A DNA stretch of 64,000 nucleotides from Candidatus Aenigmatarchaeota archaeon (GTDB lineage Archaea; Aenigmatarchaeota; Aenigmatarchaeia; CG10238-14; SCSR01). Every line of letters starts with the position of its first letter. Positions within the stretch are counted from its first letter, which is position 1. The translations under genes and the position numbers were made by a program. The stretch spans positions 160,001 through 224,000 of the forward strand of contig JAWBWS010000001.1 in the NCBI GenBank assembly GCA_038999725.1, read 5' to 3'. Below, one piece after another: positions 8,361 to 55,591 of this stretch. Below the pieces are notes generated by a model. It saw only the letters and a program-made list of their open reading frames with translations. It was not told the origin of the DNA and made no database searches.

Positions 8361-9344
8361 TTACCTAAAATCACTTATTAATTTCTTAAGAACATCAAAA
8401 CCATAAATTTGTGAGATGGTTATTGCTCCAATAGAATTTTCACAAAAATGAACAAGAGTTCTATAAATCAAAACTGCTGAAGTTGCTTGAGGTATTGGAA
8501 CTCCTAAAGAAGATAAGAGGAAGACTAGTATAGCCTCTATTGAACCCAAGCCACCTGGTATAAAAGTCAAGCTTCCTAAAAGAACAGAAATTAAAGGTAA
8601 TGTGAAAAAAACTAAAGGTAATTTTATTCCAACGGCCTTGATTGAAAACAAAAATATCAAACATTCAAGAATCCAAATTAAAAAAGTTAACAAAAATATT
8701 CTTGAAAGCATTTGTGAATTCTTAAGCTGAGTGAAACCTATAGAAAAATTTCTTACAACTTCTGATAAATCTTTACTGAATTTCTTTATAATTGGAAGCT
8801 TTATTGTTATTCTTAAAAAAAGTAACATGAATTTTTTACTATTCAAAGCAAATAGAGTTAAAATTGAAATAGAGAAGAAAAATACCATTCCAAAAAAAGC
8901 TAAAGTGATAATATGGGATGGAAGAAACTTTGCAATTGCTTGAAGGGCTGTTAAGGAGAACAAAATATAGACAAAAACATCTAGAGCTCTCTCCGTCAAT
9001 ACAAGAGGAACCGTTCTTGAAGCATGTATTTTAAATTTGAGCTTCAAGAAATAACCCCTCAAGAACTCAAAAGCTTTGAATGGAACCAAATTACCAATAA
9101 ACATCGCTGAATTGAAACTATAGAAAGCATGGGAATAAGGAATTTTGATATTCACAGACTTGAGAAAGTAAAGCCACCTCAAAGATTTAAGAAAAACAGA
9201 AAAAAAGAAGCAAAGGGTTGCTAAAATAAGAAAGGTCAAATCTGATCTTAAAATGATGTGAACAACCTCATTTATACCTGAAAAATAAACTATCAAGACT
9301 AAAATAATTGCCCCAATAAAAAAACTCAAAAACTTCAACTTCAT
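8361..9344 (-). CDS. Lysylphosphatidylglycerol-synthase TM / flippase-like membrane protein
   Basis: Multi-TM; SLRW, ERALD, PGGLGSIEA and LIYR motifs. Confidence 0.8.
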   Translation of the reverse strand: MKLKFLSFFIGAIILVLIVYFSGINEVVHIILRSDLTFLILATLCFFFSVFLKSLRWLYFLKSVNIKIPYSHAFYSFNSAMFIGNLVPFKAFEFLRGYFLKLKFKIHASRTVPLVLTERALDVFVYILFSLTALQAIAKFLPSHIITLAFFGMVFFFSISILTLFALNSKKFMLLFLRITIKLPIIKKFSKDLSEVVRNFSIGFTQLKNSQMLSRIFLLTFLIWILECLIFLFSIKAVGIKLPLVFFTLPLISVLLGSLTFIPGGLGSIEAILVFLLSSLGVPIPQATSAVLIYRTLVHFCENSIGAITISQIYGFDVLKKLISDFR

Positions 9345-9360
9345 AAAAATTAATTTGACT

Positions 9361-10014
9361 TTAAAAATTTAAACCAAACTTTAACTCAAAAATAAATCTC
9401 AAAGTTCTTATACCCTCTTTTAAAGTTCCCTTCGACTTTCCCAACTTCCTTTTTTCAAAAACTATTGGTACCTCTGTTGTTTTTAAATCAATTTTTTTTG
9501 CCTTATACAAAATTTCAGTATTAATTTTAAATCCTTTTGGATTGAGTTTAATTTTTTTGTAGACACTTCTTCTCACAGCAGAGAAACCAGACATACTATC
9601 TTTTATTTTTAAACCAAGAACCAAGGAAGTAATCAAACAAAAAATTCTGCTGATTAAAACTCTATAAAACTTATCTTTTGTTTTTCCTCCTTTCGTGTAC
9701 CTTGAACCAATAACTATATCATAATCTTTAGTTTTTTCTATAAGCTTAGATAAATCTTCTGGTCTATGGCTTCCATCACCATCCATGAGAACAATCACAT
9801 CCCCTTTAGCAAACTCTACACCCTCCAAAACAGCTTTACCTAGACCGTCAGATTTCTGCCTAATAAGCTTTGCTCCCTTAACTTTTGGAGCAACATCACT
9901 CTTATCAACCACGATTATTTCCTTACTTAAAGTGGATAAAGCTCTATGAATTCTCCCAACAAGTTTTTGAATGTAAGGCTCATTTTTTGTTGGAATTACT
10001 ATTGAAACTCTCAT
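9361..10014 (-). CDS. GT2 dolichol-phosphate mannosyltransferase-like glycosyltransferase
   Basis: SIVIPTKNE, MDGDGSH, IGSRY and DSMSGF motifs. Confidence 0.88.
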   Translation of the reverse strand: MRVSIVIPTKNEPYIQKLVGRIHRALSTLSKEIIVVDKSDVAPKVKGAKLIRQKSDGLGKAVLEGVEFAKGDVIVLMDGDGSHRPEDLSKLIEKTKDYDIVIGSRYTKGGKTKDKFYRVLISRIFCLITSLVLGLKIKDSMSGFSAVRRSVYKKIKLNPKGFKINTEILYKAKKIDLKTTEVPIVFEKRKLGKSKGTLKEGIRTLRFIFELKFGLNF

Positions 10015-10026
10015 GAATATTATTCT

Positions 10027-12729
10027 TTAATTAAAAGCAAAAAACTTTGATTTTATTTCTCCGAAGTAAAAGTTAACCTCTCCGCCACAAACCGTACATT
10101 TACCAACTAGCGGAACCCTTCTGTAGCTTGTGTTGCACTTGAGACAAACTACTCCTTCTACACTAGTGAGTGAAACACTTTCACTTTTCTTATGATTGTC
10201 TATGGCTTCTCCCAATACCATTTGCTTGCCGAGACCAATCAATTTAGTCCTAGGTATACCAATTGCTTCAAAAACTCTTTCTAATGGTGGTAAAATCTGA
10301 CTTTCAATGTAATAACGTGAATCTATTTTCAAACCATGTTTTTTAACATATTCTGGGTCTTCCGCCCTTTCGGAAACCATTTGTGCCCCTTTAACTATAA
10401 CAAACCCTACCCTATCACCAATCGAAGGAATTGTCGTCTCTCCTCTTTTTTTCATCCTCTTCACTAACTCAATGTGTGGTTGAACTCCTTTATATTGGTC
10501 AGGCCTCTTTGAAATTCCTTTTATTATAACAAGTTTTTCCAATGGGATTTGTCCATTCTGTAGTTTTTGTATCACATCTTTGAAATAAGTGAAAGCTTTT
10601 GCTGGATTTTGTTCCCTGAGTAAAATGTTCAGAACAGCCTCTTGTGTCTCGCTGACCAAATCACACCAATCTCTTCTCACAGTTTCTATTCCCTTCATCA
10701 CAATCTCATCTTTATATTGAGAATCAATCTTTTCAAAACTCCACCCAGCATATCTTTTTTTTGTTAGAATTAAAAGTGTTCTAAAAACATTCTCGACTTT
10801 GACTTTTAACTTCCCTTCAAATTTTTCATTTAGAAAATCTGCTATTTGATTGCCAATCTCTATTGCTTTATCTATGTCTCCTGTATCTGTTTTAACCATC
10901 ACAGAATCTGTGTCTCCATAAATCACTCTATACCTTGTGTTACTTTCAACAAGCTTTTTGGTTTCTTGAATGTAATATCTCCCACAACTTGTGATTGCGT
11001 TTGCTATATCCAAAACATAAAGTCTTCCAAGTAAAAATCCTGTATAGCCATAAGAGGCGTTTGCTATTCTTTTAAGTCCCTCTTGGTATGCATCTAAAGC
11101 CCTTTTTCTCACGGGATCTTTTTCAACTTTCATTTGAGCTTTAATCATATTTCTTTCTTTTATCAATCTTTCAAGAGTTTGGGGAATTATCCCTTTTCTA
11201 ATACTTGGTGGAATGAAAGAAGTACCAAATGGTGTTGTTATTGCTTCTACCCCTTCCTTTTTCTCAATCAATAAAGTTGTTGGGCAGATGTTGTAAGAAA
11301 TGAAAATTGAAGGGTACATGCTTGCAAAATCTAAATAAATGACACATGTTGTATGTAAACCAACTTCAGGATCAAGAACGAAAGCTCCTTTAAACCCTTT
11401 CACATCTCTCTCTGCTTTTCTTCTTGCAATCTCCTTTTCAGATGGTTTACAAGGTAGAACAAATCCATTTTTGTCGAACTCCCTTAAAAGTAGATTTTCG
11501 ACTTTTCCAGCTTCTCCGGTATCCAAAGAATCTTGTAATAACAAACCAGAAACTTTGGAAATTCCTATGTATTTGTCTAGAAAGTGTTTTTCTAAAAGTA
11601 ATCTCAAAACAAGCTCAGAATCTCTTCTCGCATAATCTATAAATCTTTTCATCTGCTCTTCATTACCATTCCAAGCAATTGGCATATCTGTGTGAGAAAA
11701 TTCAATTTTTTCTTCACCTAAAAGATATTTTGAGACCTCTCCCAAGCTAAATCTTTTTAGACCTGTGAAAAAACCTCTTCCAGCCATATCTTTTATTATC
11801 CAATATGGGTCTACTATTACCCTTCCAAAAACGGAATTTTTATATCTATTTTCCCCCAACTTTTTCGAAACAAGTGATTTTTCAACACATCTTCCTATAC
11901 TCCTTCTCAATTTATTAATTCTCAATCTCTCGTTGATGTATGGTATGTCAAAATCATTAATGTTATATCCAACTATTATATCAGGATCGAATTTATCAAT
12001 TATTTCTAAAAACTTTTCAAGCATCTCTTTTTCATTCTTAAAAGTTAAAACATCCTTACCTAGTCTTTTGAAATTATTTTTTGCTACTAGAATGAGTGTG
12101 TTACTACCATCAAAAGCCGGGAAAAAAGCCATACTTATTATAGCTATTTGGTTTTCCTCTGGATTTATTATCCCTTCAGAAACTACTTCTATATCCAAGG
12201 CCATATACCTTAGGGGGGCATTCTCTATTTTCTCCACAGGCTCGATTTTTTCCATTTTAATTGATTGATCCACTTTTATACTTTGTGTATGTATTGGTGA
12301 ACCATATACTTTATACCACGACATGCCAAAAAGTGAAAAATCTGCCATAAATCTGTATTTGAAGAGTATGTCTGCCTCAAAAATATCTTCAATAAAGTCC
12401 TTCTTCCTCAAATGCTCCCTTAATGTAACTGTCTTAGATGGATCTTTAAGCACAACTTTCAACATTTCTTTTTTCTTTTCTTGAAAACCTATCGGTAAAT
12501 TTCTCTCTACAATTTCTATGTTTTTTATCTCATTAGTGAAATTCTTCTTAAGTTCATCAATAACTTTTTCTTCCATTCCTTCTTTTGGTAAAATATAAAA
12601 ATATGGATAAAAGCCGTCATAAAAAGCACAAATTGTTCTTCCGTCTTCTGCCTTCCCTAAAAGTCTTATAACAGGACGATTCTCGAGAAGAATGTAATCA
12701 ACATCTAAAAGTTGAAACTCCAATTCCAT
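10027..12729 (-). CDS. polB: Family B DNA polymerase with C-terminal DP2-like C4 Zn finger
   Basis: Exo I/II/III (DIE, YNINDFD, YARRD) and polymerase motifs (DFASMYPS, KRIANASYG, YGDTDS) intact; C-terminal CLKCNTSYRRVPLVGKCTVCGG. Confidence 0.95.
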   Translation of the reverse strand: MELEFQLLDVDYILLENRPVIRLLGKAEDGRTICAFYDGFYPYFYILPKEGMEEKVIDELKKNFTNEIKNIEIVERNLPIGFQEKKKEMLKVVLKDPSKTVTLREHLRKKDFIEDIFEADILFKYRFMADFSLFGMSWYKVYGSPIHTQSIKVDQSIKMEKIEPVEKIENAPLRYMALDIEVVSEGIINPEENQIAIISMAFFPAFDGSNTLILVAKNNFKRLGKDVLTFKNEKEMLEKFLEIIDKFDPDIIVGYNINDFDIPYINERLRINKLRRSIGRCVEKSLVSKKLGENRYKNSVFGRVIVDPYWIIKDMAGRGFFTGLKRFSLGEVSKYLLGEEKIEFSHTDMPIAWNGNEEQMKRFIDYARRDSELVLRLLLEKHFLDKYIGISKVSGLLLQDSLDTGEAGKVENLLLREFDKNGFVLPCKPSEKEIARRKAERDVKGFKGAFVLDPEVGLHTTCVIYLDFASMYPSIFISYNICPTTLLIEKKEGVEAITTPFGTSFIPPSIRKGIIPQTLERLIKERNMIKAQMKVEKDPVRKRALDAYQEGLKRIANASYGYTGFLLGRLYVLDIANAITSCGRYYIQETKKLVESNTRYRVIYGDTDSVMVKTDTGDIDKAIEIGNQIADFLNEKFEGKLKVKVENVFRTLLILTKKRYAGWSFEKIDSQYKDEIVMKGIETVRRDWCDLVSETQEAVLNILLREQNPAKAFTYFKDVIQKLQNGQIPLEKLVIIKGISKRPDQYKGVQPHIELVKRMKKRGETTIPSIGDRVGFVIVKGAQMVSERAEDPEYVKKHGLKIDSRYYIESQILPPLERVFEAIGIPRTKLIGLGKQMVLGEAIDNHKKSESVSLTSVEGVVCLKCNTSYRRVPLVGKCTVCGGEVNFYFGEIKSKFFAFN

Positions 12730-12737
12730 GTTTTATT

Positions 12738-13886
12738 TTATATCAAATCAATTTTTAAATTTTCTCGTGTTTTAAGATTTACAATCCAAAATATTCTTTC
12801 AGATGAACCAGAAGAAATTATTGTTGTTCCTTTATAGTTGATTAAACCTGAAGTACCGAAATCAAAGGATAAGAAAATATCTGGAACTGGTTCTATCAAA
12901 AAACAATCTTCTTCTAAAACTCTTTCAATTGTAAAAATTGGGTTGAGATGCCTTTTCTTGAGTAAGTTTAACATTATTTCTTCTGTTCTCTCTCCCAAAA
13001 TATTTTTATAGGGAGAAAACATTTTTCCATCACAAAGAAGTAAATTTACCTTACCATTGATTAAGAGAAAGGCTGGTGGTGAAAAAGAAGTTACATCTTC
13101 GAGTTCTAGTTTTTCTTTAGTTATGAGAATTAACTTTGTGTTGATTGGTAATTTCTCTTTCAACTCTTCTATTTGTTTTTTCTCATAAGATTCTACAAAT
13201 AAAAAAATCAATTTTTTGTAATTAATTTTTGAAATTTCTTCCAAAATCTTTTTTTCATATTCTTTTATCCACTTCCCTAAAATGAAGAAACAGTAAACAT
13301 CTTCCTCTAAATTAGCGACTTTTCTCCTCAAAGGTACATCTGGCCACAAAACATTTGTAACTTCAATCTTATCATTTGTTTTTTCACAAACAAGCCCCAC
13401 AACTTCATCTTGAACAATTTGCCCAAAAAAGTTGTTTTTAAAGAAAACTGAAATTTCACCAGTGAAATCCTCTACAACAGCAGATTTGTTTTCTTTATTA
13501 ATATCTCTCACCATCACTATCAGAGAAAACTTTTTTGTTTTCTCTGTTATCTTGTTTATAGAAATCAAATTAACTATATCCATCCTGTAAGAAAAGAATG
13601 ATTTGATTTTCTCATATCTCTCTAATAAAATTCTTGAAATATCATCAACTGAAAAATTTTTTACATTCAAGGCTTTTTTCTTAATTTCTTTGATTTCAAC
13701 TTCTTCCAAAATAGATTTAATTAAATCTATTTTGACCACAGGAGGAACTTCCATTTTAACAATTTTTTCAAGAAAGATTTTAACTTGTTCAGGATTTCTT
13801 GAAAAATAATCCAAACTATCTTGATCAATCATCAAACCTCTCTTTAAAAAAATATCCACAATTTTTTCTTTTTCCATAGAAACCAA
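12738..13886 (-). CDS. Inactivated PolD small subunit (DP1)-like / B-subunit-like protein
   Basis: DP1-like OB fold (VEDFTGEI, DEVVG, WPDVP) and LLKKRHLNP, VPDIF, YKGTTIISSG segments; metal-binding DxH and GHxH motifs replaced. Confidence 0.8.
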   Translation of the reverse strand: MVSMEKEKIVDIFLKRGLMIDQDSLDYFSRNPEQVKIFLEKIVKMEVPPVVKIDLIKSILEEVEIKEIKKKALNVKNFSVDDISRILLERYEKIKSFFSYRMDIVNLISINKITEKTKKFSLIVMVRDINKENKSAVVEDFTGEISVFFKNNFFGQIVQDEVVGLVCEKTNDKIEVTNVLWPDVPLRRKVANLEEDVYCFFILGKWIKEYEKKILEEISKINYKKLIFLFVESYEKKQIEELKEKLPINTKLILITKEKLELEDVTSFSPPAFLLINGKVNLLLCDGKMFSPYKNILGERTEEIMLNLLKKRHLNPIFTIERVLEEDCFLIEPVPDIFLSFDFGTSGLINYKGTTIISSGSSERIFWIVNLKTRENLKIDLI

Positions 13887-13894
13887 AGAAAATA

Positions 13895-14152
13895 TTATCT
13901 TTTTAATATATAAACAAGAATTCCTACCTTCTCTTTATCTTTTGAATGGGGTAAGGCTTTAACAATAACTTGATTATTTTTAACCAATTCATCTAAATAT
14001 TTTTGAATCGTGTTCCAACTTAAATTCTTGTTAAACTTTTTTGAGATAAGCATCTTTATTGAAGAGGTGGTTAAAGGTGTTTGAGTATTTGAGAGAACAT
14101 CTAAAATTAAAAATTTTACTTGCTCTCTCAGACTTCTTCTTCCTCTTTTCAT
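13895..14152 (-). CDS. Small winged-helix protein
   Basis: wHTH pattern with LSWNTIQKYL; paralog of 14805..15032. Confidence 0.7.
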   Translation of the reverse strand: MKRGRRSLREQVKFLILDVLSNTQTPLTTSSIKMLISKKFNKNLSWNTIQKYLDELVKNNQVIVKALPHSKDKEKVGILVYILKR

Positions 14153-14175
14153 AATTGAAAGATATTTATTTGAAA

Positions 14176-14808
14176 TTAAAAGGTAATAATTGATTTTTCT
14201 GTTCTAACAAATGGCACAGGACTTGTGTTTGATATCGCCTTTTTAAGATAACCACGCTTCTCTAAATTTTTTAACCTATGATAAAATGTTTGATATCTAA
14301 GACCGAAGATGTGGGCATCTAATAGAAAAATAGGTTTTTCTCTTGCATACTCTAAAATCTTCAAATCTATTTCATCCAAAGGTCTTGAATCATTGTTTTT
14401 TCGTTTAAATGATTTTTTTATAAGTGAAGTTGGATTGTAATAATAAAAGACTTTATTTTCAGCATCTTTAATAATGGTAACTTGTTTTTCATCAATCAGA
14501 ATGATACCTAGTTTCTTTCTTAAATTCTCCAGTTCAGGGTTAATTGTCAACATGTTAATAAATGTGTTAAGAAATATAGGAGGTGCACATAAAAAAACAT
14601 GGGAAAAGTCGGTAAAATAACTGATAATCTCCCCAAGTGTATTTTTTACATCTGATTCATCACCTTTTACTTCCACACAGTACCAAAAATTTCCTTTTTT
14701 AAATACAAAATCTGGTTTACAATGAGGGAATTCCCTTTCTGTAAAAAATTCTATTTTATTTTCCTGTAGATATTTTAGAAAAATAGATTTTGCTTCTTCC
14801 TCATTCAT
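14176..14808 (-). CDS. PD-(D/E)XK nuclease-fold protein with C-terminal wHTH
   Basis: E...PDFV...VEVKG motif; C-terminal LDEIDLKIL...FYHRLKNLEKRGYL. Confidence 0.7.
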   Translation of the reverse strand: MNEEEAKSIFLKYLQENKIEFFTEREFPHCKPDFVFKKGNFWYCVEVKGDESDVKNTLGEIISYFTDFSHVFLCAPPIFLNTFINMLTINPELENLRKKLGIILIDEKQVTIIKDAENKVFYYYNPTSLIKKSFKRKNNDSRPLDEIDLKILEYAREKPIFLLDAHIFGLRYQTFYHRLKNLEKRGYLKKAISNTSPVPFVRTEKSIITF

Positions 14809-15032
14809 TTTTTCAACCTGTAAGTAGTAGTTTTACCAACACGTATTTCCTCTACTTTTTGTGCATCTCTTAAGGCTATTAAATATTTTTGAATAGTATG
14901 CCATGAAAGGCCTGGTCTTTCGAGCTTTTTTGCAACAGTTTTCCTTATAAATTCTGAAGTGTGAGGTAAATTATCATCCAAACAACTCAATATCACAAGC
15001 TCAAAAAATTTTCCATAAGGTCTTCTTGACAT
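14805..15032 (-). CDS. Small winged-helix protein
   Basis: LSWHTIQKYL helix followed by a beta-wing (VGKTTTYRL). Confidence 0.7.
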   Translation of the reverse strand: MSRRPYGKFFELVILSCLDDNLPHTSEFIRKTVAKKLERPGLSWHTIQKYLIALRDAQKVEEIRVGKTTTYRLKK

Positions 15033-15066
15033 ATCTTTATTTATTGAATTTATTCTTTATAAATAT

Positions 15067-15245
15067 TGCAGTTAACAGACCATAATTGCGAAGAAATTGA
15101 ATTAATTTAAATATAGTGCGAACATTTGAAATAACATGCGATGATTTTACTTTTCATGCGAAGAGTAAATTGATAGTTAAACTGGACAATTATTGCAAAA
15201 AATTAATTTCACTTTGTGTTAGAGACAGAAATATTAGTGCGAACA
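15067..15245. promoter_or_regulatory. Phased TGCGA(A) direct-repeat array upstream of the polB cassette
   Basis: TGCGA at 15087, 15117, 15137, 15157 and 15238; TGCA at 15067 and 15194; TAGTGCGAACA exact at 15114 and 15235. Confidence 0.55.
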
Positions 15246-15335
15246 ATTTAACTACTATCAGAATCTTTCAATATTTTTTATTAGTAGCGGAAAAATATCG
15301 TCTATAATATACCATTTCTAATATCTTCTGAACTT

Positions 15336-15689
15336 TCATAAAAATAATTCCTTAACTTTTAAAAGAAGTTCCCTAATCCCTTCGACATCCCTTACAGGCA
15401 TATAGATTCTTGGATAAGTTTCAACTTTCTCAATAAGATTTAGTTTGGCAAGGGTATCTAACCTTTTTCTTAAGGTTTCTAGGTTTATTTGCACCCCTTC
15501 ACTTCTCAATTCAGAAAAAAGCTGTTGAACATAATAACAAGTGGTATCATTCGGAAACTTTTTGTTATTAAAATAGAATTTTTGTAAAATCCTTATCATA
15601 ACAACATCAAAATTAAGAAATATTGAAGAAAGTTTCTTTTTTGTATTCACATCTTCCTGTATAGGAATGTTAACAATTGAGGCGTTCAT
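15336..15689 (-). CDS. Winged-helix DNA-binding protein
   Basis: INLETLRKRLDTLAKLNLIEKVETYPRIY wHTH pattern. Confidence 0.65.
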   Translation of the reverse strand: MNASIVNIPIQEDVNTKKKLSSIFLNFDVVMIRILQKFYFNNKKFPNDTTCYYVQQLFSELRSEGVQINLETLRKRLDTLAKLNLIEKVETYPRIYMPVRDVEGIRELLLKVKELFL

Positions 15690-15742
15690 TTTTTCCCATT
15701 TAGTTGTTTTATTTTTATAATTTAATATAACTGTTAAACTTT

Positions 15743-16417
15743 TTAAACTAAATTAATAATTCTTGCTTCAACTTTTTTATTTTTAATTGTAGCAAAGCCA
15801 CAATATCCTTCCGGAAACCTACCAGCATTGATTAATTTTGTTCCATTTATTTCATCAATGCCTCTTGCTTCATGTATATGAGCACTTATCGCTAAAACAG
15901 GTTTAAATTTTTCAATAACTTCTCTTACTGCTTCTGATCCAACATGGGCACCAGTATGAACAACATCAACTCTTGTTCTTGCTGGAGGTACATGGGTAAC
16001 CTGAACTTTAACTTCACTTTCTTTAATCATTTCAAATGCTTTTTCTAATCCTTTTCTTATTTCATCTTCAGATGGCTCTAGAGGGGTGCCAAAAGGTGTT
16101 CTAGCCCCTCCAAAACCGTAAAAACCAATATTATCAATAATTTTTCCTTTTCCATGAAGACTTATTCCTTCTTTTTCCAAGATTTCTATTATATCTCTAT
16201 CCCAATTTCCAGGCAAAGCTAAGATGGGTTTGTTTAAAGTTTTAAGTTCTTCAATAATCACTTTCGAGATATCTAGAGAAGAAAATCCTTTTGGTGGCAC
16301 ATCTAGAAAGTCCCCTGGAAACACGATAACATCAAAATTAAACATGTTAACTTTATCAATATATTCCATTAAATTTTCTACATCATTATGGATGTCGCTT
16401 ATTATCAAGATATCCAT
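15743..16417 (-). CDS. Calcineurin-like metallophosphoesterase
   Basis: SDIH, GDF, PGNWD, THVPP and AHIHE motifs. Confidence 0.9.
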   Translation of the reverse strand: MDILIISDIHNDVENLMEYIDKVNMFNFDVIVFPGDFLDVPPKGFSSLDISKVIIEELKTLNKPILALPGNWDRDIIEILEKEGISLHGKGKIIDNIGFYGFGGARTPFGTPLEPSEDEIRKGLEKAFEMIKESEVKVQVTHVPPARTRVDVVHTGAHVGSEAVREVIEKFKPVLAISAHIHEARGIDEINGTKLINAGRFPEGYCGFATIKNKKVEARIINLV

Positions 16418-16462
16418 CTTATCATCTAATGATTTTTAATCAACAGATTTTAAATATCTAAT

Positions 16463-16798
16463 ATGTTCTCCTCCAGAAAAAAAGGATATAGGATTGAAAG
16501 AAAGATAAGACTCCTTTTTGAAAAATATGGTTGGAAAGTCATAAGAGCTGGGGCAAGTTTGGGTGAGGCAGATTTGATTTGTATTAAAAATAGAAAATGT
16601 ATTTTACTCCAAATTAAATCAACTAGGAAGAAAGCTCTATATTTTTACGGTGATTTAATTAAAAACATAGAAGGGTTTCCATTCTTCTTGGTTGTAGATT
16701 TTGGTTATGGGAATATAAGAATATTGAGACCAAGAAAGAAGGTGTTAACAAATAGTGGAATTGCGCTTAAAGATTTTTTGGAAAACAATAAAATTTAA
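16463..16798 (+). CDS. hjc: Holliday junction resolvase Hjc-like nuclease
   Basis: KGYRIER...GWKVIRAGAS...ADLI...QIKST. Confidence 0.75.
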   Translation: MFSSRKKGYRIERKIRLLFEKYGWKVIRAGASLGEADLICIKNRKCILLQIKSTRKKALYFYGDLIKNIEGFPFFLVVDFGYGNIRILRPRKKVLTNSGIALKDFLENNKI

Positions 16799-16825
16799 AG
16801 AAACATATTATAAGTAGGTGGTAAT

Positions 16826-17374
16826 TTGCCAGTATATGTAAGAGATATAATGGTCAAAAATATAGTGACTATTGATCAAGAAAAAACAGTTAAACAAGCA
16901 GGAGAATTGATGAAAAAAACAAGAAAAGGTTGCCTTATAGTAACAAAAAATGGTAAGCCCGTGGGTATACTTTCTGATAGCGATGTAATAAAGAGGGTTG
17001 TTGCAAAAAACTTTTTGCCAAGTAAAATTAAAGTTAAACAAGTTATGAGTTCACCTTTAATAACAATTAGTCCAGATGATGACATTTTATCAGCTGTGAG
17101 GAAAATGAAAAGGAATAATATCCATAGGTTGCCAGTAGTTCTCAATGGAAAATTGGTTGGTATAATTTCACTTTCAGATATAGCTAAAACATCACCAGAG
17201 ATGTTAGATCTTCTTGAATATAGATTAAAAATGAAATCTTATGAACCAGAGATAAGAGAAAAAATAACTTCAGGAATTTGTGAATCATGCGGCAATTACA
17301 GTGATAATTTACAAAATGTGAATGGTCAATGGTTGTGTGAAGATTGTAAGGAAGATCTTGAACATGAGTATTGA
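16826..17374 (+). CDS. CBS-pair protein with C-terminal Zn ribbon
   Basis: Two CBS domains; CESCG...LCEDC; TTG start after GGTGGT. Confidence 0.88.
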   Translation: MPVYVRDIMVKNIVTIDQEKTVKQAGELMKKTRKGCLIVTKNGKPVGILSDSDVIKRVVAKNFLPSKIKVKQVMSSPLITISPDDDILSAVRKMKRNNIHRLPVVLNGKLVGIISLSDIAKTSPEMLDLLEYRLKMKSYEPEIREKITSGICESCGNYSDNLQNVNGQWLCEDCKEDLEHEY

Positions 17375-18158
17375 TTTAAGTCTTGCAGGTTTAGATAGAA
17401 AACAAAAAATAATCCACTTCTCAGAACTCAACCCAACATTTTGTTTCGAGGGAGAAAGGATTATAGAGGTTGTGGATAAAATAATAGAAAAAGGGCATAG
17501 AAGGCTCCCCATTCTAACAAAAGACAAAAAATTGGTTGGTATAATAACAACAATGGACATCCTTGGAGCCTTTTTGCGCAAACAAAATTTTCAAGACCCA
17601 ATATCAACTATAATGAATAGAGAAGTCATATTTTGTGATGCGGATGAAACTCTTGGTAATGTTTTGTTAAAATTTAAGTTTTCAAGAAGAGGAGGATTCC
17701 CGATTACAAAAAACGGTAAACTTGTTGGGATGATATCGGAGAGAGATATTGTTAGAAGGTTTTCTTCTGTAAATTTTGGAATTAAAGTTGAAGAGGTGAT
17801 GACAAGAAAACCTTTTTTTCTCAGCCCAACCACTTCAATTTTAGATGCGATCAAAAGTATGGTTAATACCCATTACAGAAGATTGCCATTGGTCGAGGAC
17901 AAAAAATTGGTTGGTATATTTACATCAGCGGATGCCATTTCGTATTTAAGAAAAAATAATTTCAGTTTCTCAAATTTATTATTACCGCTTATACCAACAT
18001 TCGAAAAAAATGTGTATTACATAGAAAAGGAAAAAGATTTATCAGAAGCGATTAAAGAAATGGTGAAAAGAGATGTGGGAGGTCTTCCTGTTGTTAGTGA
18101 AGACAATACCTTAGAAGGTATAATAACCGAAAGAGATATATTAGAGGAAATTGTCTAA
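17364..18158 (+). CDS. Four-CBS-domain protein
   Basis: Repeated RRLP..LVGI CBS motifs; likely ATG at 17364 overlapping the upstream stop. Confidence 0.85.
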   Translation: MSIDLSLAGLDRKQKIIHFSELNPTFCFEGERIIEVVDKIIEKGHRRLPILTKDKKLVGIITTMDILGAFLRKQNFQDPISTIMNREVIFCDADETLGNVLLKFKFSRRGGFPITKNGKLVGMISERDIVRRFSSVNFGIKVEEVMTRKPFFLSPTTSILDAIKSMVNTHYRRLPLVEDKKLVGIFTSADAISYLRKNNFSFSNLLLPLIPTFEKNVYYIEKEKDLSEAIKEMVKRDVGGLPVVSEDNTLEGIITERDILEEIV

Positions 18159-18164
18159 ATAATT

Positions 18165-18605
18165 ATGCTTTCTCCCCAATTTTTAGAGATAGTAGAAGAA
18201 GCAAGGAAAGAACAACCTATTGTAATAGTTGAAGGAGCAAGAGATGGGCTTGTTTTAAAAATGCTTGGTTTTACAAATGTTATAGAAATTTCAGGGAAAC
18301 CAATAGAGGAAATTTTGGAAAAAATTATTTCGAAACCTTCATCAGAGGTAGTAATACTTACCGATTTCGATAAGGAGGGGGAAAGATTAGCTTCAGAGCT
18401 CATAACTCTTCTTTCTCACTATAAAATTAATATAAATCACTTCATAAGAAGGAAATTCAAATCAATTAAAATTCAAAAAATTGAGGAGTTAAACTCTTTC
18501 ATAAAATTAATGGAGGATTATCAAAATGGGAAAATTAGCTCAATCTACTATAAAATATTTAATAGAAGCAGAATTTTCGACAGAAGGAATAGTAGAAAAA
18601 CCTGA
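18165..18605 (+). CDS. Small Toprim-domain protein (RNase M5-like)
   Basis: IVEGARD and ILTDFDKEGE Toprim motifs. Confidence 0.8.
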   Translation: MLSPQFLEIVEEARKEQPIVIVEGARDGLVLKMLGFTNVIEISGKPIEEILEKIISKPSSEVVILTDFDKEGERLASELITLLSHYKININHFIRRKFKSIKIQKIEELNSFIKLMEDYQNGKISSIYYKIFNRSRIFDRRNSRKT

Positions 18606-19407
18606 TGTGATAGGAGCTATATTTGGTCAAACAGAAGGTTTATTAGGTCAAGATTTGGATCTAAGGGAGCTCCAAAGGACGGGTAGAATTGGAAGAATAG
18701 AGGTAGAAATTTCAAACGAGAATGGAAAAACATTTGGGAAGATTTTCCTACCATCAAGTCTAGACAGCTCTGAAACTGCTCTCATAGCAGCTTCTTTGGA
18801 AACAATAGAAAGAATAGGGCCTTGTATGGCAACGGTTAAGGTAATTTCTGTTAGGGATGTAAGGGCGATGAAAAGGGAATTCATGTTGAACAGGGCAAAA
18901 GATATTCTTGGAAAATTGATGACAGAAGAAATACCACCAACCTCAACTCTCACAGAAATTATTAGAGAAGAGGTTAAGAAGTCCCAAATAAAGGATTATT
19001 TCAATCTTCCAGCAGGTCCAGATGTTGAAAGTTCTGATGAAATAATCATAGTGGAAGGCAGGGCGGATGTTTTAAATCTTCTTAAAAATGGGATTAAAAA
19101 TGTGATTGCAATAGAGGGTGCAAAGGTACCCCAACCAATAATTGACCTAATGAAAGAAAAAATAACTACATTGTTTGTCGATGGTGATAGAGGAGGGGAT
19201 TTGATAATCAAGGAAATTCTACAGGTTGGTGGAGTGGATTATATAGCAAGAGCACCTGAAGGAAAAGAGGTTGAAGAATTAACAAAAAAAGAGATATTTA
19301 AAGCTTTAAGGGAGAAGATACCCACTAGTCAATACAAACTTGAGCTGAAAACAAAAGAATTAAAAGATTTTATTCCAAAGAAGGATTCTCAAGAGAGTTC
19401 AGCTTGA
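18526..19407 (+). CDS. dnaG: Archaeal DnaG (short form)
   Basis: VEKPDVIGAIFGQTEGLLG, VEGRADV, DGDRGG and GKEVEEL motifs. Confidence 0.93.
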   Translation: MGKLAQSTIKYLIEAEFSTEGIVEKPDVIGAIFGQTEGLLGQDLDLRELQRTGRIGRIEVEISNENGKTFGKIFLPSSLDSSETALIAASLETIERIGPCMATVKVISVRDVRAMKREFMLNRAKDILGKLMTEEIPPTSTLTEIIREEVKKSQIKDYFNLPAGPDVESSDEIIIVEGRADVLNLLKNGIKNVIAIEGAKVPQPIIDLMKEKITTLFVDGDRGGDLIIKEILQVGGVDYIARAPEGKEVEELTKKEIFKALREKIPTSQYKLELKTKELKDFIPKKDSQESSA

Positions 19408-53107: not shown

Positions 53108-55591
53108 TTATTCATCCTTTTTAAAAAAGCTTAATATTTTTTTCTGTTTCTTTTCATTTAAAATTTCCTCTTTTGTTATTCCAAGAGCTTTTAAGACACG
53201 CATGCTAGCAGGAAGAATTTGATGATGAGTGTAATATTCAGGATCATACTCACCAGGTTTGACATCTTCAACAGGTTCGGCTCTATCTGAAATTGAGCCA
53301 GATCCCTTTACTATCACAAAACCTATAATACTTCCCTCACCTACAAGCTTTCCTCTAGCTCTTGCTTTCTGTGCTGCTTTTACATGAGGCCCGATTTGCT
53401 CATATTGACTTAATGGGCGAGTAATTTGCTCAAAGATTGTTAATTCTTCTAACGGAATTTTTCCCTCTTTAATTTTTTTGATAGTTTCTCTCACAAGCTG
53501 GATAGCTTTGTCAGGATTTTTGTCTCTCAAAATCGTGATTAATACATCTCTTTGAATTTTCTTACTCAATTCACACCAATCTCTCCTTACTGCTTCATAT
53601 CCTCTTATTTCAATGTTGCCATTGTAATCTAGAAGTGCATATCTTTTTTTAGCTCCAACCTCACCTTTTTCTCTTGCAACAAATATTCCACCTTCGTACA
53701 AATCTCTGAATTCCAACTCTATTATACCCGGCAGCTTATTATTGACTTTTTCTACAAATTTTCTACCCACCTCAATCAATTTTTCTCTCGATTTTTCCGG
53801 ATATTTTGCCATTAGCGAATCTGTATCACCGTAAATTATTTCTAGACCAAATTTTTTGGCTTCATCAATCACAGTTGTAATATACTTTCTACCCCATGCA
53901 GCTGTTGCAGCACCACATTCCCTTTTATACCATTTTGCACCTACAAAACCAAAATACCCATAAGAGGCATTTGCAATTATCTTTAAAGCATATTGAAGAT
54001 TGTCCAACTTCTTCCATTCTTCACTGTTTTTTTCAAGTTTTTTCATCATCTTTTTGATTTCCAACCTTTTTTTAATCAGCTCTTCCAAATGTTTTGGTAT
54101 GAACCCTTTGTTTTTTATACAAAAATGCCATTTGGTCTCCGGTACTGCATTTTTTTCTTTACATTCTTCATGATTGCAGTTTAGAGTTTCTGGGGAAATG
54201 TTATGAGAAACTATTATCGTTGGATACAAACTTCTAAAATCAAAAACCAAGATGTCTGAATGAATTCCTTTTTTTGGCTCAATCACTATTGCCCCCTTGT
54301 AAGCTGGGGACATTTTCCTCTTCTCTATTTCTTCTGTTTTTGGTCTGTTTGGTATAATCACATCATCAAGAAAAGCCCTTCTCATGTAAAAAGCTTCTAC
54401 AAGCTGGGAATAGGTGTTTCTACATACATCAAACGGTAAAAGGCCCGTCAACCTACTAATAGCAAAAATTTGTGGTAATATCAGCTCAGAAAGTTTGAAA
54501 GTTAATATGGAATCATGTAAGCTGTATTCAGCTAGTCTTTCTAAACCCTTTTTCTTAGTCCAAATTTCAACCATTTCCTTGTATTCCATCTCTTTTTTAC
54601 CTATTCCAAGTAACTCTTCTGCAACCTCATTTAAAGTTAAAACCTCACTTTTCAAGCTTGTTGATAGGATGTGATCAATAAAATTGAATAGGTCTATGTG
54701 TACTCTACCTTTAATTTTGGTTGAGCTTACTCTCCCCCTTCTAACTAAATGTATTGGAGAATTATCTCTCCCAAGTTTTAAGGGAACTTTCAGTTCTTCT
54801 GCCCTTTCTTTAAGTTTAGGAAAATCAAAATTGTCACCATTATAAGTGCATATGAAATCAGGATCCTCCTTTTCCACAATTTCCAAAAACCTTTCTATTA
54901 TTTCTCTCTCTTCTTTGAGAGATTCTACATAATCTGGTTGGTTTTCCCAACACTCGGAAGTTAAGACCTTTTTCATCCCTCTGCTTGAAACAAGACTTAA
55001 CATAATCAGTTTCGATTTTCCATTTTCCTCTACAAATTCTGTATCAAAAGCTAAAACATTTAGCTCAACATCTGTTGGTAAACTTTCTTGTTTTACTACT
55101 TTTATAGAGTTGGCTTTAATTATGTAATCCGCTTTATAGTTTTCTTTATTTTCTATTTTCTTCCCATCAACTTTAATCCAGTTCATAGGCTCAATTTGTT
55201 TGTCTATCAAGTAACGCTTGTAGAAAGGAATATCATACTCGTAAGTTTCTTCTACATCTTCCAATTCCTTCACAATATTTCTGATGTTTTGAATTTTCCT
55301 TGGATTGTCAATTACCAATTTTAAAATTTTTATCTTCTCGAGTTGTAATTTTTTTTCCGTTGTTATAACTTCAACTATCTTGATGTTTACATCTTTTGTA
55401 TTAACCTCTTCAATTTTTTTCTTAACCTCTTCAATTTTGTTTTTCTTAGGCAACACATAAAAGTATGGGTAAAAATCTTGGTCTAGAACCAAACAGTTTT
55501 TACCTTTAGAATCTTTACAATAAAGCCTAACAACAGGTTTTTCTTCCATTACAGTATAGTCGACATCTAAAAGAAACAAATTTTCTTCCAA
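53108..55591 (-). CDS. polB: Family B DNA polymerase (canonical PolB3-like)
   Basis: YEYDIPFYKRYLID, FDTE, YNGDNFD, DFRSLYPT, KIIANASYGY and YGDTDS motifs; C-terminal PIP box QKKILSFF. Confidence 0.96.
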   Translation of the reverse strand: MEENLFLLDVDYTVMEEKPVVRLYCKDSKGKNCLVLDQDFYPYFYVLPKKNKIEEVKKKIEEVNTKDVNIKIVEVITTEKKLQLEKIKILKLVIDNPRKIQNIRNIVKELEDVEETYEYDIPFYKRYLIDKQIEPMNWIKVDGKKIENKENYKADYIIKANSIKVVKQESLPTDVELNVLAFDTEFVEENGKSKLIMLSLVSSRGMKKVLTSECWENQPDYVESLKEEREIIERFLEIVEKEDPDFICTYNGDNFDFPKLKERAEELKVPLKLGRDNSPIHLVRRGRVSSTKIKGRVHIDLFNFIDHILSTSLKSEVLTLNEVAEELLGIGKKEMEYKEMVEIWTKKKGLERLAEYSLHDSILTFKLSELILPQIFAISRLTGLLPFDVCRNTYSQLVEAFYMRRAFLDDVIIPNRPKTEEIEKRKMSPAYKGAIVIEPKKGIHSDILVFDFRSLYPTIIVSHNISPETLNCNHEECKEKNAVPETKWHFCIKNKGFIPKHLEELIKKRLEIKKMMKKLEKNSEEWKKLDNLQYALKIIANASYGYFGFVGAKWYKRECGAATAAWGRKYITTVIDEAKKFGLEIIYGDTDSLMAKYPEKSREKLIEVGRKFVEKVNNKLPGIIELEFRDLYEGGIFVAREKGEVGAKKRYALLDYNGNIEIRGYEAVRRDWCELSKKIQRDVLITILRDKNPDKAIQLVRETIKKIKEGKIPLEELTIFEQITRPLSQYEQIGPHVKAAQKARARGKLVGEGSIIGFVIVKGSGSISDRAEPVEDVKPGEYDPEYYTHHQILPASMRVLKALGITKEEILNEKKQKKILSFFKKDE

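Follow-up and report, generated by a model that had tools for sequence, protein, structure and literature searches.

A candidate replication origin with small winged-helix proteins in the place of Orc1-1 beside the PolB replicase genes of one Aenigmatarchaeota branch

Introduction

The initiator Orc1-1 and the origin oriC1 are held to be the ancestral and broadly conserved initiation system of archaea (PMC3607249). At oriC3 of Sulfolobus, the protein WhiP is required and Orc1 is not (PMC3607249), and WhiP is thought to derive from a mobile element (PMC3607249, PMC4010727). In Aenigmatarchaeota, a B6 PolB with an inactive DP1 has been described as the replacement of PolD (Kazlauskas et al., PMC7544198), and in two-hybrid assays DP1 bound only the PolB that bears the C-terminal domain (CTD) and no other PolB (PMC12680538). 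Here we describe the DNA directly upstream of such a replicase in a Candidatus Aenigmatarchaeota archaeon (assembly GCA_038999725.1), at positions 13,895 to 15,689 of a window of 64,000 nucleotides, the window being the whole stretch that was analysed (positions 160,001 to 224,000 of contig JAWBWS010000001.1). It contains three genes for winged helix-turn-helix (wHTH) proteins, called H1, H2 and H3, a nuclease gene (NUC) and a non-coding spacer between H3 and H1, and it is followed by the genes of the inactive DP1 (DP1i) and PolB.

The spacer is very probably a replication origin. The reading that we consider probable is that an H2-family wHTH protein (H1 in this genome) binds the repeated boxes of the spacer, H3 assists, and Orc1 has been displaced in situ in a WhiP-like manner, pointing to an undescribed route of DNA replication initiation in one Aenigmatarchaeota branch. 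A literature search, which left most subscription papers outside, found nothing on Aenigmatarchaeota origins or on Orc1-1 loss there; a Nanobdellota preprint (10.64898/2026.05.13.725050) treats another phylum.

Loss of Orc1-1 and the genes in its place

The assembly (730 kb, 93% complete; the window lies on its contig C1) was compared with 300 genomes of the phylum, of which 79 belong to families f1, f2, f3, f5 and f6 and 221 to other groups (f, g, G, C and L codes denote families, genera, genomes, contigs and fetched loci). With a cut-off of E ≤ 1e-90, chosen to separate a second paralogue whose best value is 1e-49, Orc1-1 was found in none of the 79 genomes, whereas 201 of the 221 others carry it. 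The H2 family is present in 73 of the 79 and gave 19 H2-like, mostly weak matches among the 221; H3 occurs in 69 of the 79 versus 4 of the 221. The 79 genomes form one clade on the DP1 tree (FastTree, support 0.954), and the loss of Orc1-1 is therefore counted as one event. The same pattern is seen in Supplementary Table 1 of PMC12680538, which lists Cdc6-1 in eight of nine Aenigmatarchaeota and only Cdc6-2 in the ninth, under names that are unmatched to our coded families.

In sister families the ancestral gene order is phosphoesterase, canonical oriC, Orc1-1, DP1 and PolB. Among 20 PolB upstream regions from genomes without H2 in this slot, 18 show the order Cdc6, DP1i, PolB; eleven of the 20 come from the same order, and all of these share the phosphoesterase ahead of the spacer. 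The metallophosphoesterase gene precedes the spacer in 11 of 11 f4 and f7 loci and precedes H3 in most derived loci. An H2-family gene lies directly before DP1i-PolB in the window and in 38 fetched loci, namely in 27 of the 31 loci of a first set (the other four being second copies elsewhere) and in 11 of the 20 of a second set. The commonest derived order is phosphoesterase, H3, a spacer of 180-480 bp, H2, DP1i and PolB. H1 adjoins H2 in L001 to L004 and in L038, and several loci have an H1-like gene alone.

Repeat architecture of the spacer

The spacer, which had been overlooked in an earlier note made on this DNA from its sequence, holds five co-oriented copies of TCGCA where 0.13 are expected, the sole cluster of four or more in the genome. 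Boxes were defined by k-mer enrichment and inspection, a first unguided motif search having given mostly A/T-tract patterns. With a matrix built from five relatives, the only multi-site cluster in this genome was the window spacer. A matrix trained without the test genomes gave its highest-scoring window, within 400 kb, at the array in both G219 (7 boxes; this genome shares its genus with two of the training spacers) and G018 (3 boxes), and nothing comparable was found with it in an Orc1-1 control genome.

The box consensus of the derived spacers is TTTTTATGAACTTTC. Repeats at a lag of 20-22 were found in 19 of 28 spacers, which are kin and not independent, versus 20 of 117 intergenic stretches elsewhere in this genome; five spacers (one duplicate, four with inserts) were left out of this test. 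Copies of the motif TTATGA point inward: the left half of the spacer has 21 of the 25 that read forward, and the right half has 22 of the 26 that read in reverse. The boxes converge in most relatives. Where H3 has moved (L022, L024, L047, L048), the array remains with H2-DP1i-PolB. In 24 of 30 spacers, the first start codon has an inverted box at most 65 nt away; in the window this box lies just ahead of a TATA-like element. The box variant AAATGTT(C/T)GCAC, present in this genus, G212 and G020, occurs in the same 6 of 28 spacers whose first gene encodes SWHT, not SWNT, in its recognition helix.

The ancestral spacers are built differently, with inverted origin recognition boxes (ORBs) and their G-strings flanking a central palindrome, TATAAC-N3-GTTATA. 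By a pattern written after inspection of these ancestral spacers, ORB and G-string were detected in 15 of 21 ancestral versus 1 of 32 derived spacers and not in the window spacer. The palindrome, accepted with at most one mismatch (shuffle mean 1.07), is present in 13 of 32 derived spacers versus 20 of 21 ancestral origins across the phylum, where it stands midway between the ORBs (L052-L071, L076, L078, L198). Its position is that of the Sulfolobus ucm (PMC12141716), of which it is possibly an analogue; its sequence differs from the ucm in the Ori-Finder-Arch preprint (10.64898/2026.08.15.744077), whose accessible part omits this phylum.

Phased repeats also occur outside the clade. In family f14, adjacent H2-like and H3 genes at L032:7479-8251, L033:327-1209 and L034:2122-2894 are preceded, in all three fetched loci, by 21-bp phased repeats TTCTCC(G/A)AATTCCAA, and both their helix (HFDT) and their box differ from those of the clade. 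This f14 locus is possibly a second origin or the source of the module.

Strand asymmetry around the spacer

Plain cumulative GC3 and TA3 skew (at third codon positions) of the genome's own contigs was uninformative. A scan was devised afterwards that looks for the point at which strand-signed asymmetry in synonymous codons switches (four components, 1,000 permutations); it was then applied unchanged to G112 and G131. On contig C1 the best break is located at 175.0 kb (window position about 15003), and the spacer lies at 175.0-175.3 kb. In G219 the best break is at 233.7 kb with the locus at 235.7 kb, and in G112 it is at 215.9 kb with the locus at 214.0 kb; in all three cases, the permutation count was 0 of 1,000. 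The break thus lies within 2 kb of the spacer in three of four long contigs.

Genes on the plus and minus strands shift in opposite directions, also when small basic proteins are excluded (G106, G219, G018 and C1), which argues against an expression artefact; scans of plus-strand or minus-strand genes alone locate the break poorly. The T/A shift on C1 has the same sign as in G131, a genome with Orc1-1. No significant break was found on contigs C2, which carries the second Cdc6 gene, and C3. An AT-rich intergenic site, repeated boxes and an asymmetry switch, three of the features of a canonical oriC, are present at this locus.

Annotation of the locus

The features of the locus are listed in Table 1. 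The gene structure that the earlier note had described was borne out: all open reading frames (ORFs) lie at its coordinates on the minus strand, and those from 15032 down to 10027 form a tightly packed co-directional run with gaps of -4, 23, 8 and 8 bp. H1 and H2 are indeed paralogous wHTH genes (both with LSW[HN]TIQKYL; aligned at 39% over 59 aa, E 1e-8), the nuclease between them has a PD...EVK motif, a predicted PD-(D/E)XK domain and its own C-terminal wHTH, and the third gene upstream, H3, is also predicted to fold as a wHTH.

Table 1. Features of the putative origin and replicase locus (window coordinates).
Feature	Position	Strand	Evidence or remark
Metallophosphoesterase	15743..16417	-	Pfam Metallophos; upstream landmark in Orc1-1-bearing and wHTH-bearing genomes alike
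H3, 117-aa wHTH, subtype B, proposed co-initiator or helicase-loading partner	15336..15689	-	AlphaFold2 (AF2) fold, distribution
Spacer, 303 bp, 25% GC, proposed oriC and promoter	15033..15335	-	Boxes, asymmetry break, synteny
Boxes AAATGTT(C/T)GCAC	hexamer starts 15243, 15199, 15162, 15142, 15122, 15092	-	20-bp period in core
Inverted box	15072		Abuts TATA-like TTTATAAA, 31 nt before H1 start
H1, 75-aa wHTH, SWHT recognition helix, proposed box binder in genus	14805..15032	-	Helix/box co-occurrence
NUC, 210 aa, PD-(D/E)XK nuclease with C-terminal wHTH	14176..14808	-	Motif D33/E46/K48, fold
H2, 85-aa wHTH, N-terminal MKRGR(P), SWNT helix, Orc1-1 slot	13895..14152	-	Directly precedes DP1
DP1i, degenerate DP1/B subunit, 382 aa	12738..13886	-	Partial NCBIfam DP1 matches far under cut-off; PMC7544198
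PolB, 900 aa, DP2-like C-terminal zinc finger (B6-aenigma1 type)	10027..12729	-	Pfam DNA_pol_B, motifs, complementary distribution with DP2

Beyond PolB the run goes on, with gaps of 12 and 16 bp, in two glycosylation genes (window 8361-10014, minus strand); they encode a glycosyltransferase and an LPG-synthase-like protein and prolong the run in this genus. On the plus strand, window positions 16463-19407 encode Hjc, two CBS proteins, a Toprim protein and DnaG, a conserved block on one flank of the putative origin. Positions 12766-17000 were matched by one Logan contig with zero differences, possibly from the same source run as this DNA; no form missing only the nuclease was seen among the Logan contigs, and no RNA dataset was among the listed holders of the locus. 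Sigma-70 promoter scans gave chance-level results.

The replicase

The motifs for exonuclease and polymerase activity are intact in PolB, and its C-terminal part has a CxxC..CxxC motif at residue 862, which is shared by 36 full-length PolBs (one partly masked). DP2 was not found in this genome at its completeness of 93%. In the phylum, 13 of 300 genomes have it, all but one of these in a single family, and each of four genomes tested from that family gave only a weak PolB match. With a zinc motif on an active PolB, DP2 absent, a degenerate DP1 retained and a host from the Aenigmatarchaeota, the region 10027-13886 agrees with B6-aenigma1 in each feature tested, and the PolB with its inactive DP1 is the already known Aenigmatarchaeota replicase. 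The accessible parts of the reports on this replicase (PMC7544198, PMC12680538) are silent on upstream wHTH genes, on the origin and on Orc1-1 loss.

A second PolB is encoded at window positions 53108-55591 (minus strand); it comprises 827 aa, is 33% identical to the replicase and has an intact YGDTDS motif and no C-terminal zinc motif. Two further observations may reflect binning contamination: a DP2 match in one f1 genome (G111:C64:998-1843) and two H3-H2-DP1-PolB loci in the single genome G010 (L006, L021).

The wHTH proteins

Neither a name nor a family could be assigned to H1, H2 and H3 from Pfam, NCBIfam, PHROGs, PDB sequence search or the ESM Atlas, and no ORF of the genome other than H1 and H2 has the motif LSW[HN]TIQKYL. 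All three proteins (75, 85 and 117 aa) lack an AAA+ domain, with no Pfam or NCBIfam match. The AF2 model of H3 is a wHTH with flanking helices (predicted local distance difference test score 74.5), and its best fold matches are tied between ArsR, PadR and the winged-helix domains of Orc1/ORC (2qby_A, Z 10.7, root mean square deviation (rmsd) 2.4 over 97 residues).

Profile comparisons gave less than 1% for H3 or H2 against the Orc1-1 winged helix and thus no support for the candidate explanation that either is a remnant of this domain. H2 reached 93.7% against the winged helix of the second Cdc6 paralogue, but the wHTH of NUC also reached 75.8%. H1 and H2 against H3 were not significant (6.5%), and the wHTH of NUC weakly resembles H3 (81.6%). 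The N-terminal MKRGRP of H2 is reminiscent of an AT-hook, which would fit a box that contains a T-tract.

In the H3 tree, a clade of 11 loci (support 1.000) is mirrored by a clade of H1-type genes (0.937) from the same 11 loci plus two inverted copies. On the PolB tree this subtype-B set needs five changes, at least two of which are forced by well-supported branches (quick tree, with L003 and L018 left out). The trees thus suggest that H1 and H3 of subtype B share a history apart from PolB and that H2 is the resident copy; cassette exchange and an old duplication with differential loss both fit the pattern.

Several relatives of these genes were found at other positions. In genus g3 (L010:8754-9017, L041:7627-7890), an H1-type gene in inverted orientation follows H3 immediately and is in turn followed by the spacer and H2. 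A separate clade of H2-family paralogues (L028-L031, L044), with LNT or LNV in the helix and not WNT, is located in unrelated loci of many f1 genomes without a repeat array. On an IMG/VR contig (L168:3400-4514), an H2-like gene with LSWNTIQKYL lies behind a 550-bp AT-rich stretch; a 103-aa ORF that overlaps the gene looks like H3 by eye but is not significantly similar to it (0.6%). This H2-like gene is the only such find on viral contigs, and no relatives of H3 or the nuclease were found there.

The C-terminal winged helix of MCM is kept in groups with and without Orc1-1 (5 proteins). In L106/L107 (G037:C7), MCM is broken within a 1039-aa frame, probably by an intein.

The nuclease

NUC has a PD-(D/E)XK motif on a restriction-endonuclease core fold (Hjc match with E 0.0017 and predicted fold), and the region of D33, E46 and K48 is conserved across five aligned members. 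Its top fold match is 3dnx, presumably an MmcB-family structure (Z 10.5, rmsd 7.8 over 124 residues), tied with PaqCI and XisH (Z 9.6 and 9.5). As to the MmcB relationship raised in the earlier note, five of five members have no MmcB Pfam match at E ≤ 0.1.

Full-length relatives were found in 8 of 117 genomes of the order; six are seen in the slot, a seventh is in the slot by its coordinates and one was left uninspected. NUC is absent between H1 and H2 in L001, L002 and L038, and it is a patchy, dispensable passenger of the slot. The wHTH-nuclease-wHTH triple, a module in the earlier note, is not conserved as a unit: of 39 loci examined with an H2-family gene before DP1-PolB, the window alone carries the triple. 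Tandem distant relatives of NUC occur at G002:C14:1443-2563, G005:C7:27569-28722 and G006:C24:126-1279, in congeners without the slot nuclease.

Discussion

The proposed mechanism would start from an ancestral oriC1-orc1-1-DP1-polB locus, from which the spacer would be inherited. After the loss of Orc1-1 in the ancestor of the clade, small winged-helix proteins would have taken over in place. An H2-family wHTH protein (H1 in this genus) would bind the boxes, two helical turns apart, with H3 as its partner. The pair would label the origin and deliver MCM to it, either directly, in the manner of WhiP, or through the divergent Cdc6 paralogue still present, which they would recruit. Through the box beside the TATA element, the same protein could control transcription of its own gene together with those of DP1 and PolB. 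The H3-spacer-H1 unit would be a subtype with a history apart from PolB, in which H1 is the cognate binder, H2 the resident copy and the nuclease dispensable; this separate history would account for the presence of the two paralogues H1 and H2.

A further-reaching version, which we put forward only tentatively, dispenses with an AAA+ initiator throughout the clade. At the ancestral main origin, an H2-family wHTH protein and H3 (about 10-14 kDa) would bind the iteron-like array and load MCM directly, and the cassette would have been swapped between lineages at the same slot, with box and recognition helix changing together and the nuclease assisting.

Several observations weigh against the displacement of Orc1 by wHTH proteins at this spacer. 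The 79 genomes are not independent, as the loss of Orc1-1 is a single evolutionary event. Four f14 genomes keep Orc1-1 yet carry the adjacent H2-like/H3 pair elsewhere, so the pair can exist without displacing Orc1-1. In G229 (L045:7047-7277), the H2-family gene overlaps its upstream neighbour, leaving no spacer before DP1-PolB, and the origin of this genome must be elsewhere or lost. In the window spacer, six of seven boxes share one direction and the central palindrome is missing (3 mismatches). The best break in G018 is at 263 kb, 44 kb from the locus (219 kb), which lies inside the support interval. The Orc1-1 controls give weak signals: G131 has its break at 688.9 kb, roughly 1 kb off its oriC with ORBs, yet with 151 of 1,000 permutations, and in G106 the break is 141 kb distant from the locus, which falls at the margin of the support interval. 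The skew component that carries the signal varies between genomes, and a break can also mark a terminus or a rearrangement. Finally, this genome and 24 of 24 clade genomes checked retain the second Cdc6, which has its Walker A and B motifs and could be the initiator.

This last point leads to the strongest alternative, which we regard as unlikely: the spacer is an origin fired by the remaining Cdc6 paralogue, and H1, H2 and H3 are transcription factors of the DP1-PolB operon. The paralogue keeps its sensor motifs as well, the inverted box close to the first start codon is operator-like, and the B-type box in reverse (GTGCAAAC) is one letter off the ORB core consensus GTGGAAAC. However, the paralogue is also present in Orc1-1-bearing genomes. 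It is shorter and divergent and, here and in most loci, lies within an unrelated operon elsewhere that has no spacer upstream; the only Cdc6 gene found in this genome is on contig C2, and none adjoins the spacer. The f14 pair, preceded by phased repeats of its own, and the box variant that follows the H1 helix (in few independent events) also speak for the wHTH proteins as the binders.

It is improbable that the origin died with Orc1-1 and that the clade replicates by recombination without a fixed origin, the spacer being an operator and the skew a relic. Haloferax grows origin-free (PMC4010727), a gene for a Holliday junction resolvase adjoins the locus, and the central palindrome was lost from 19 of 32 derived spacers, including that of the window. 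Yet the synonymous-site asymmetry switches at the spacer in three lineages with deeply diverged PolBs, where the effect exceeds that in both Orc1-1 controls. In 13 of 32 spacers, boxes still converge on an AT-rich core that holds the ancestral palindrome, and the resolvase gene was a neighbour before Orc1-1 was lost.

The accessory, damage-inducible repair or mutagenesis cassette that the earlier note had preferred to a housekeeping replicase, in the manner of imuABC/MmcB, is very improbable and largely refuted: the fold match of the nuclease to 3dnx and a second PolB that could replicate instead would suit it, but that match is tied with others, the nuclease is rare, DP2 is missing, the motifs of the slot PolB are intact, this PolB with inactive DP1 is the published PolD replacement (PMC7544198, PMC12680538), DP1 binds the CTD-bearing PolB and not others (PMC12680538), and the box matrix has no second cluster in the genome, so that no regulon is seen. 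The other suggestion of that note, a domesticated mobile replication module, survives in part, since the wHTH genes are conserved beside the zinc-finger PolB and behave like a portable replication module.

If the displacement of Orc1 by wHTH proteins is true, this would be the second independent Orc1-free initiation after WhiP and, in the literature found, the first at a main origin, in a lineage that has also swapped PolD for a eukaryote-like PolB/B-subunit replicase. With two small proteins, 300 bp of DNA and MCM, it would be a minimal system for studying which tasks fall to a helicase loader when no AAA+ initiator takes part, and the natural variants of box and helix allow tests of specificity. 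Such a class of origins would be invisible to predictors based on ORBs and Cdc6.

Comparison with known systems

With MmcB/imuABC the locus shares a PD-(D/E)XK fold and a DNA polymerase neighbour; it differs in the extra wHTH, in the lack of an MmcB Pfam match, in its patchy presence and in a polymerase that is the replicase. The locus does not show the arrangement of that cassette, in which an error-prone accessory polymerase stands next to a distinct replicase and answers to a common damage regulon.

Iteron plasmid origins have direct repeats about two helical turns apart, upstream of a gene for a wHTH Rep protein, with a box over the promoter. Unlike these, the present locus is chromosomal and lies beside the replicase operon, and its two winged-helix domains are on separate chains.

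The canonical oriC1-orc1-1 arrangement (ORB, duplex unwinding element, ORB; f4, f7 and outgroups) has the same position and neighbours, inward boxes, an AT-rich core and a skew switch, and 13 of 32 relatives of the present locus have the same central palindrome. The derived loci differ by the lack of ORB with G-string and of an adjacent Orc1 gene and by a new box sequence and spacing.

The proposed system would work like WhiP at Sulfolobus oriC3, a winged-helix protein that lacks an AAA+ domain and is encoded next to an archaeal chromosomal origin at which Orc1 is not needed. No match to WhiP/Cdt1 emerged from Pfam, NCBIfam, PHROGs, PDB sequences and the Atlas, searches that included no direct comparison with the WhiP sequence, and a tandem winged helix was not found, the profile hits among cluster representatives being mostly 57-136 aa long. 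WhiP has its tandem winged helices in one chain and serves an extra origin in Sulfolobus, which keeps Orc1-1 and oriC1. Here, in contrast, separate single-domain proteins of 75-117 aa take the position of Orc1-1 at the oriC1 locus, from which the Orc1-1 gene has been lost, and the spacing of the boxes is phased at 20-22 bp.

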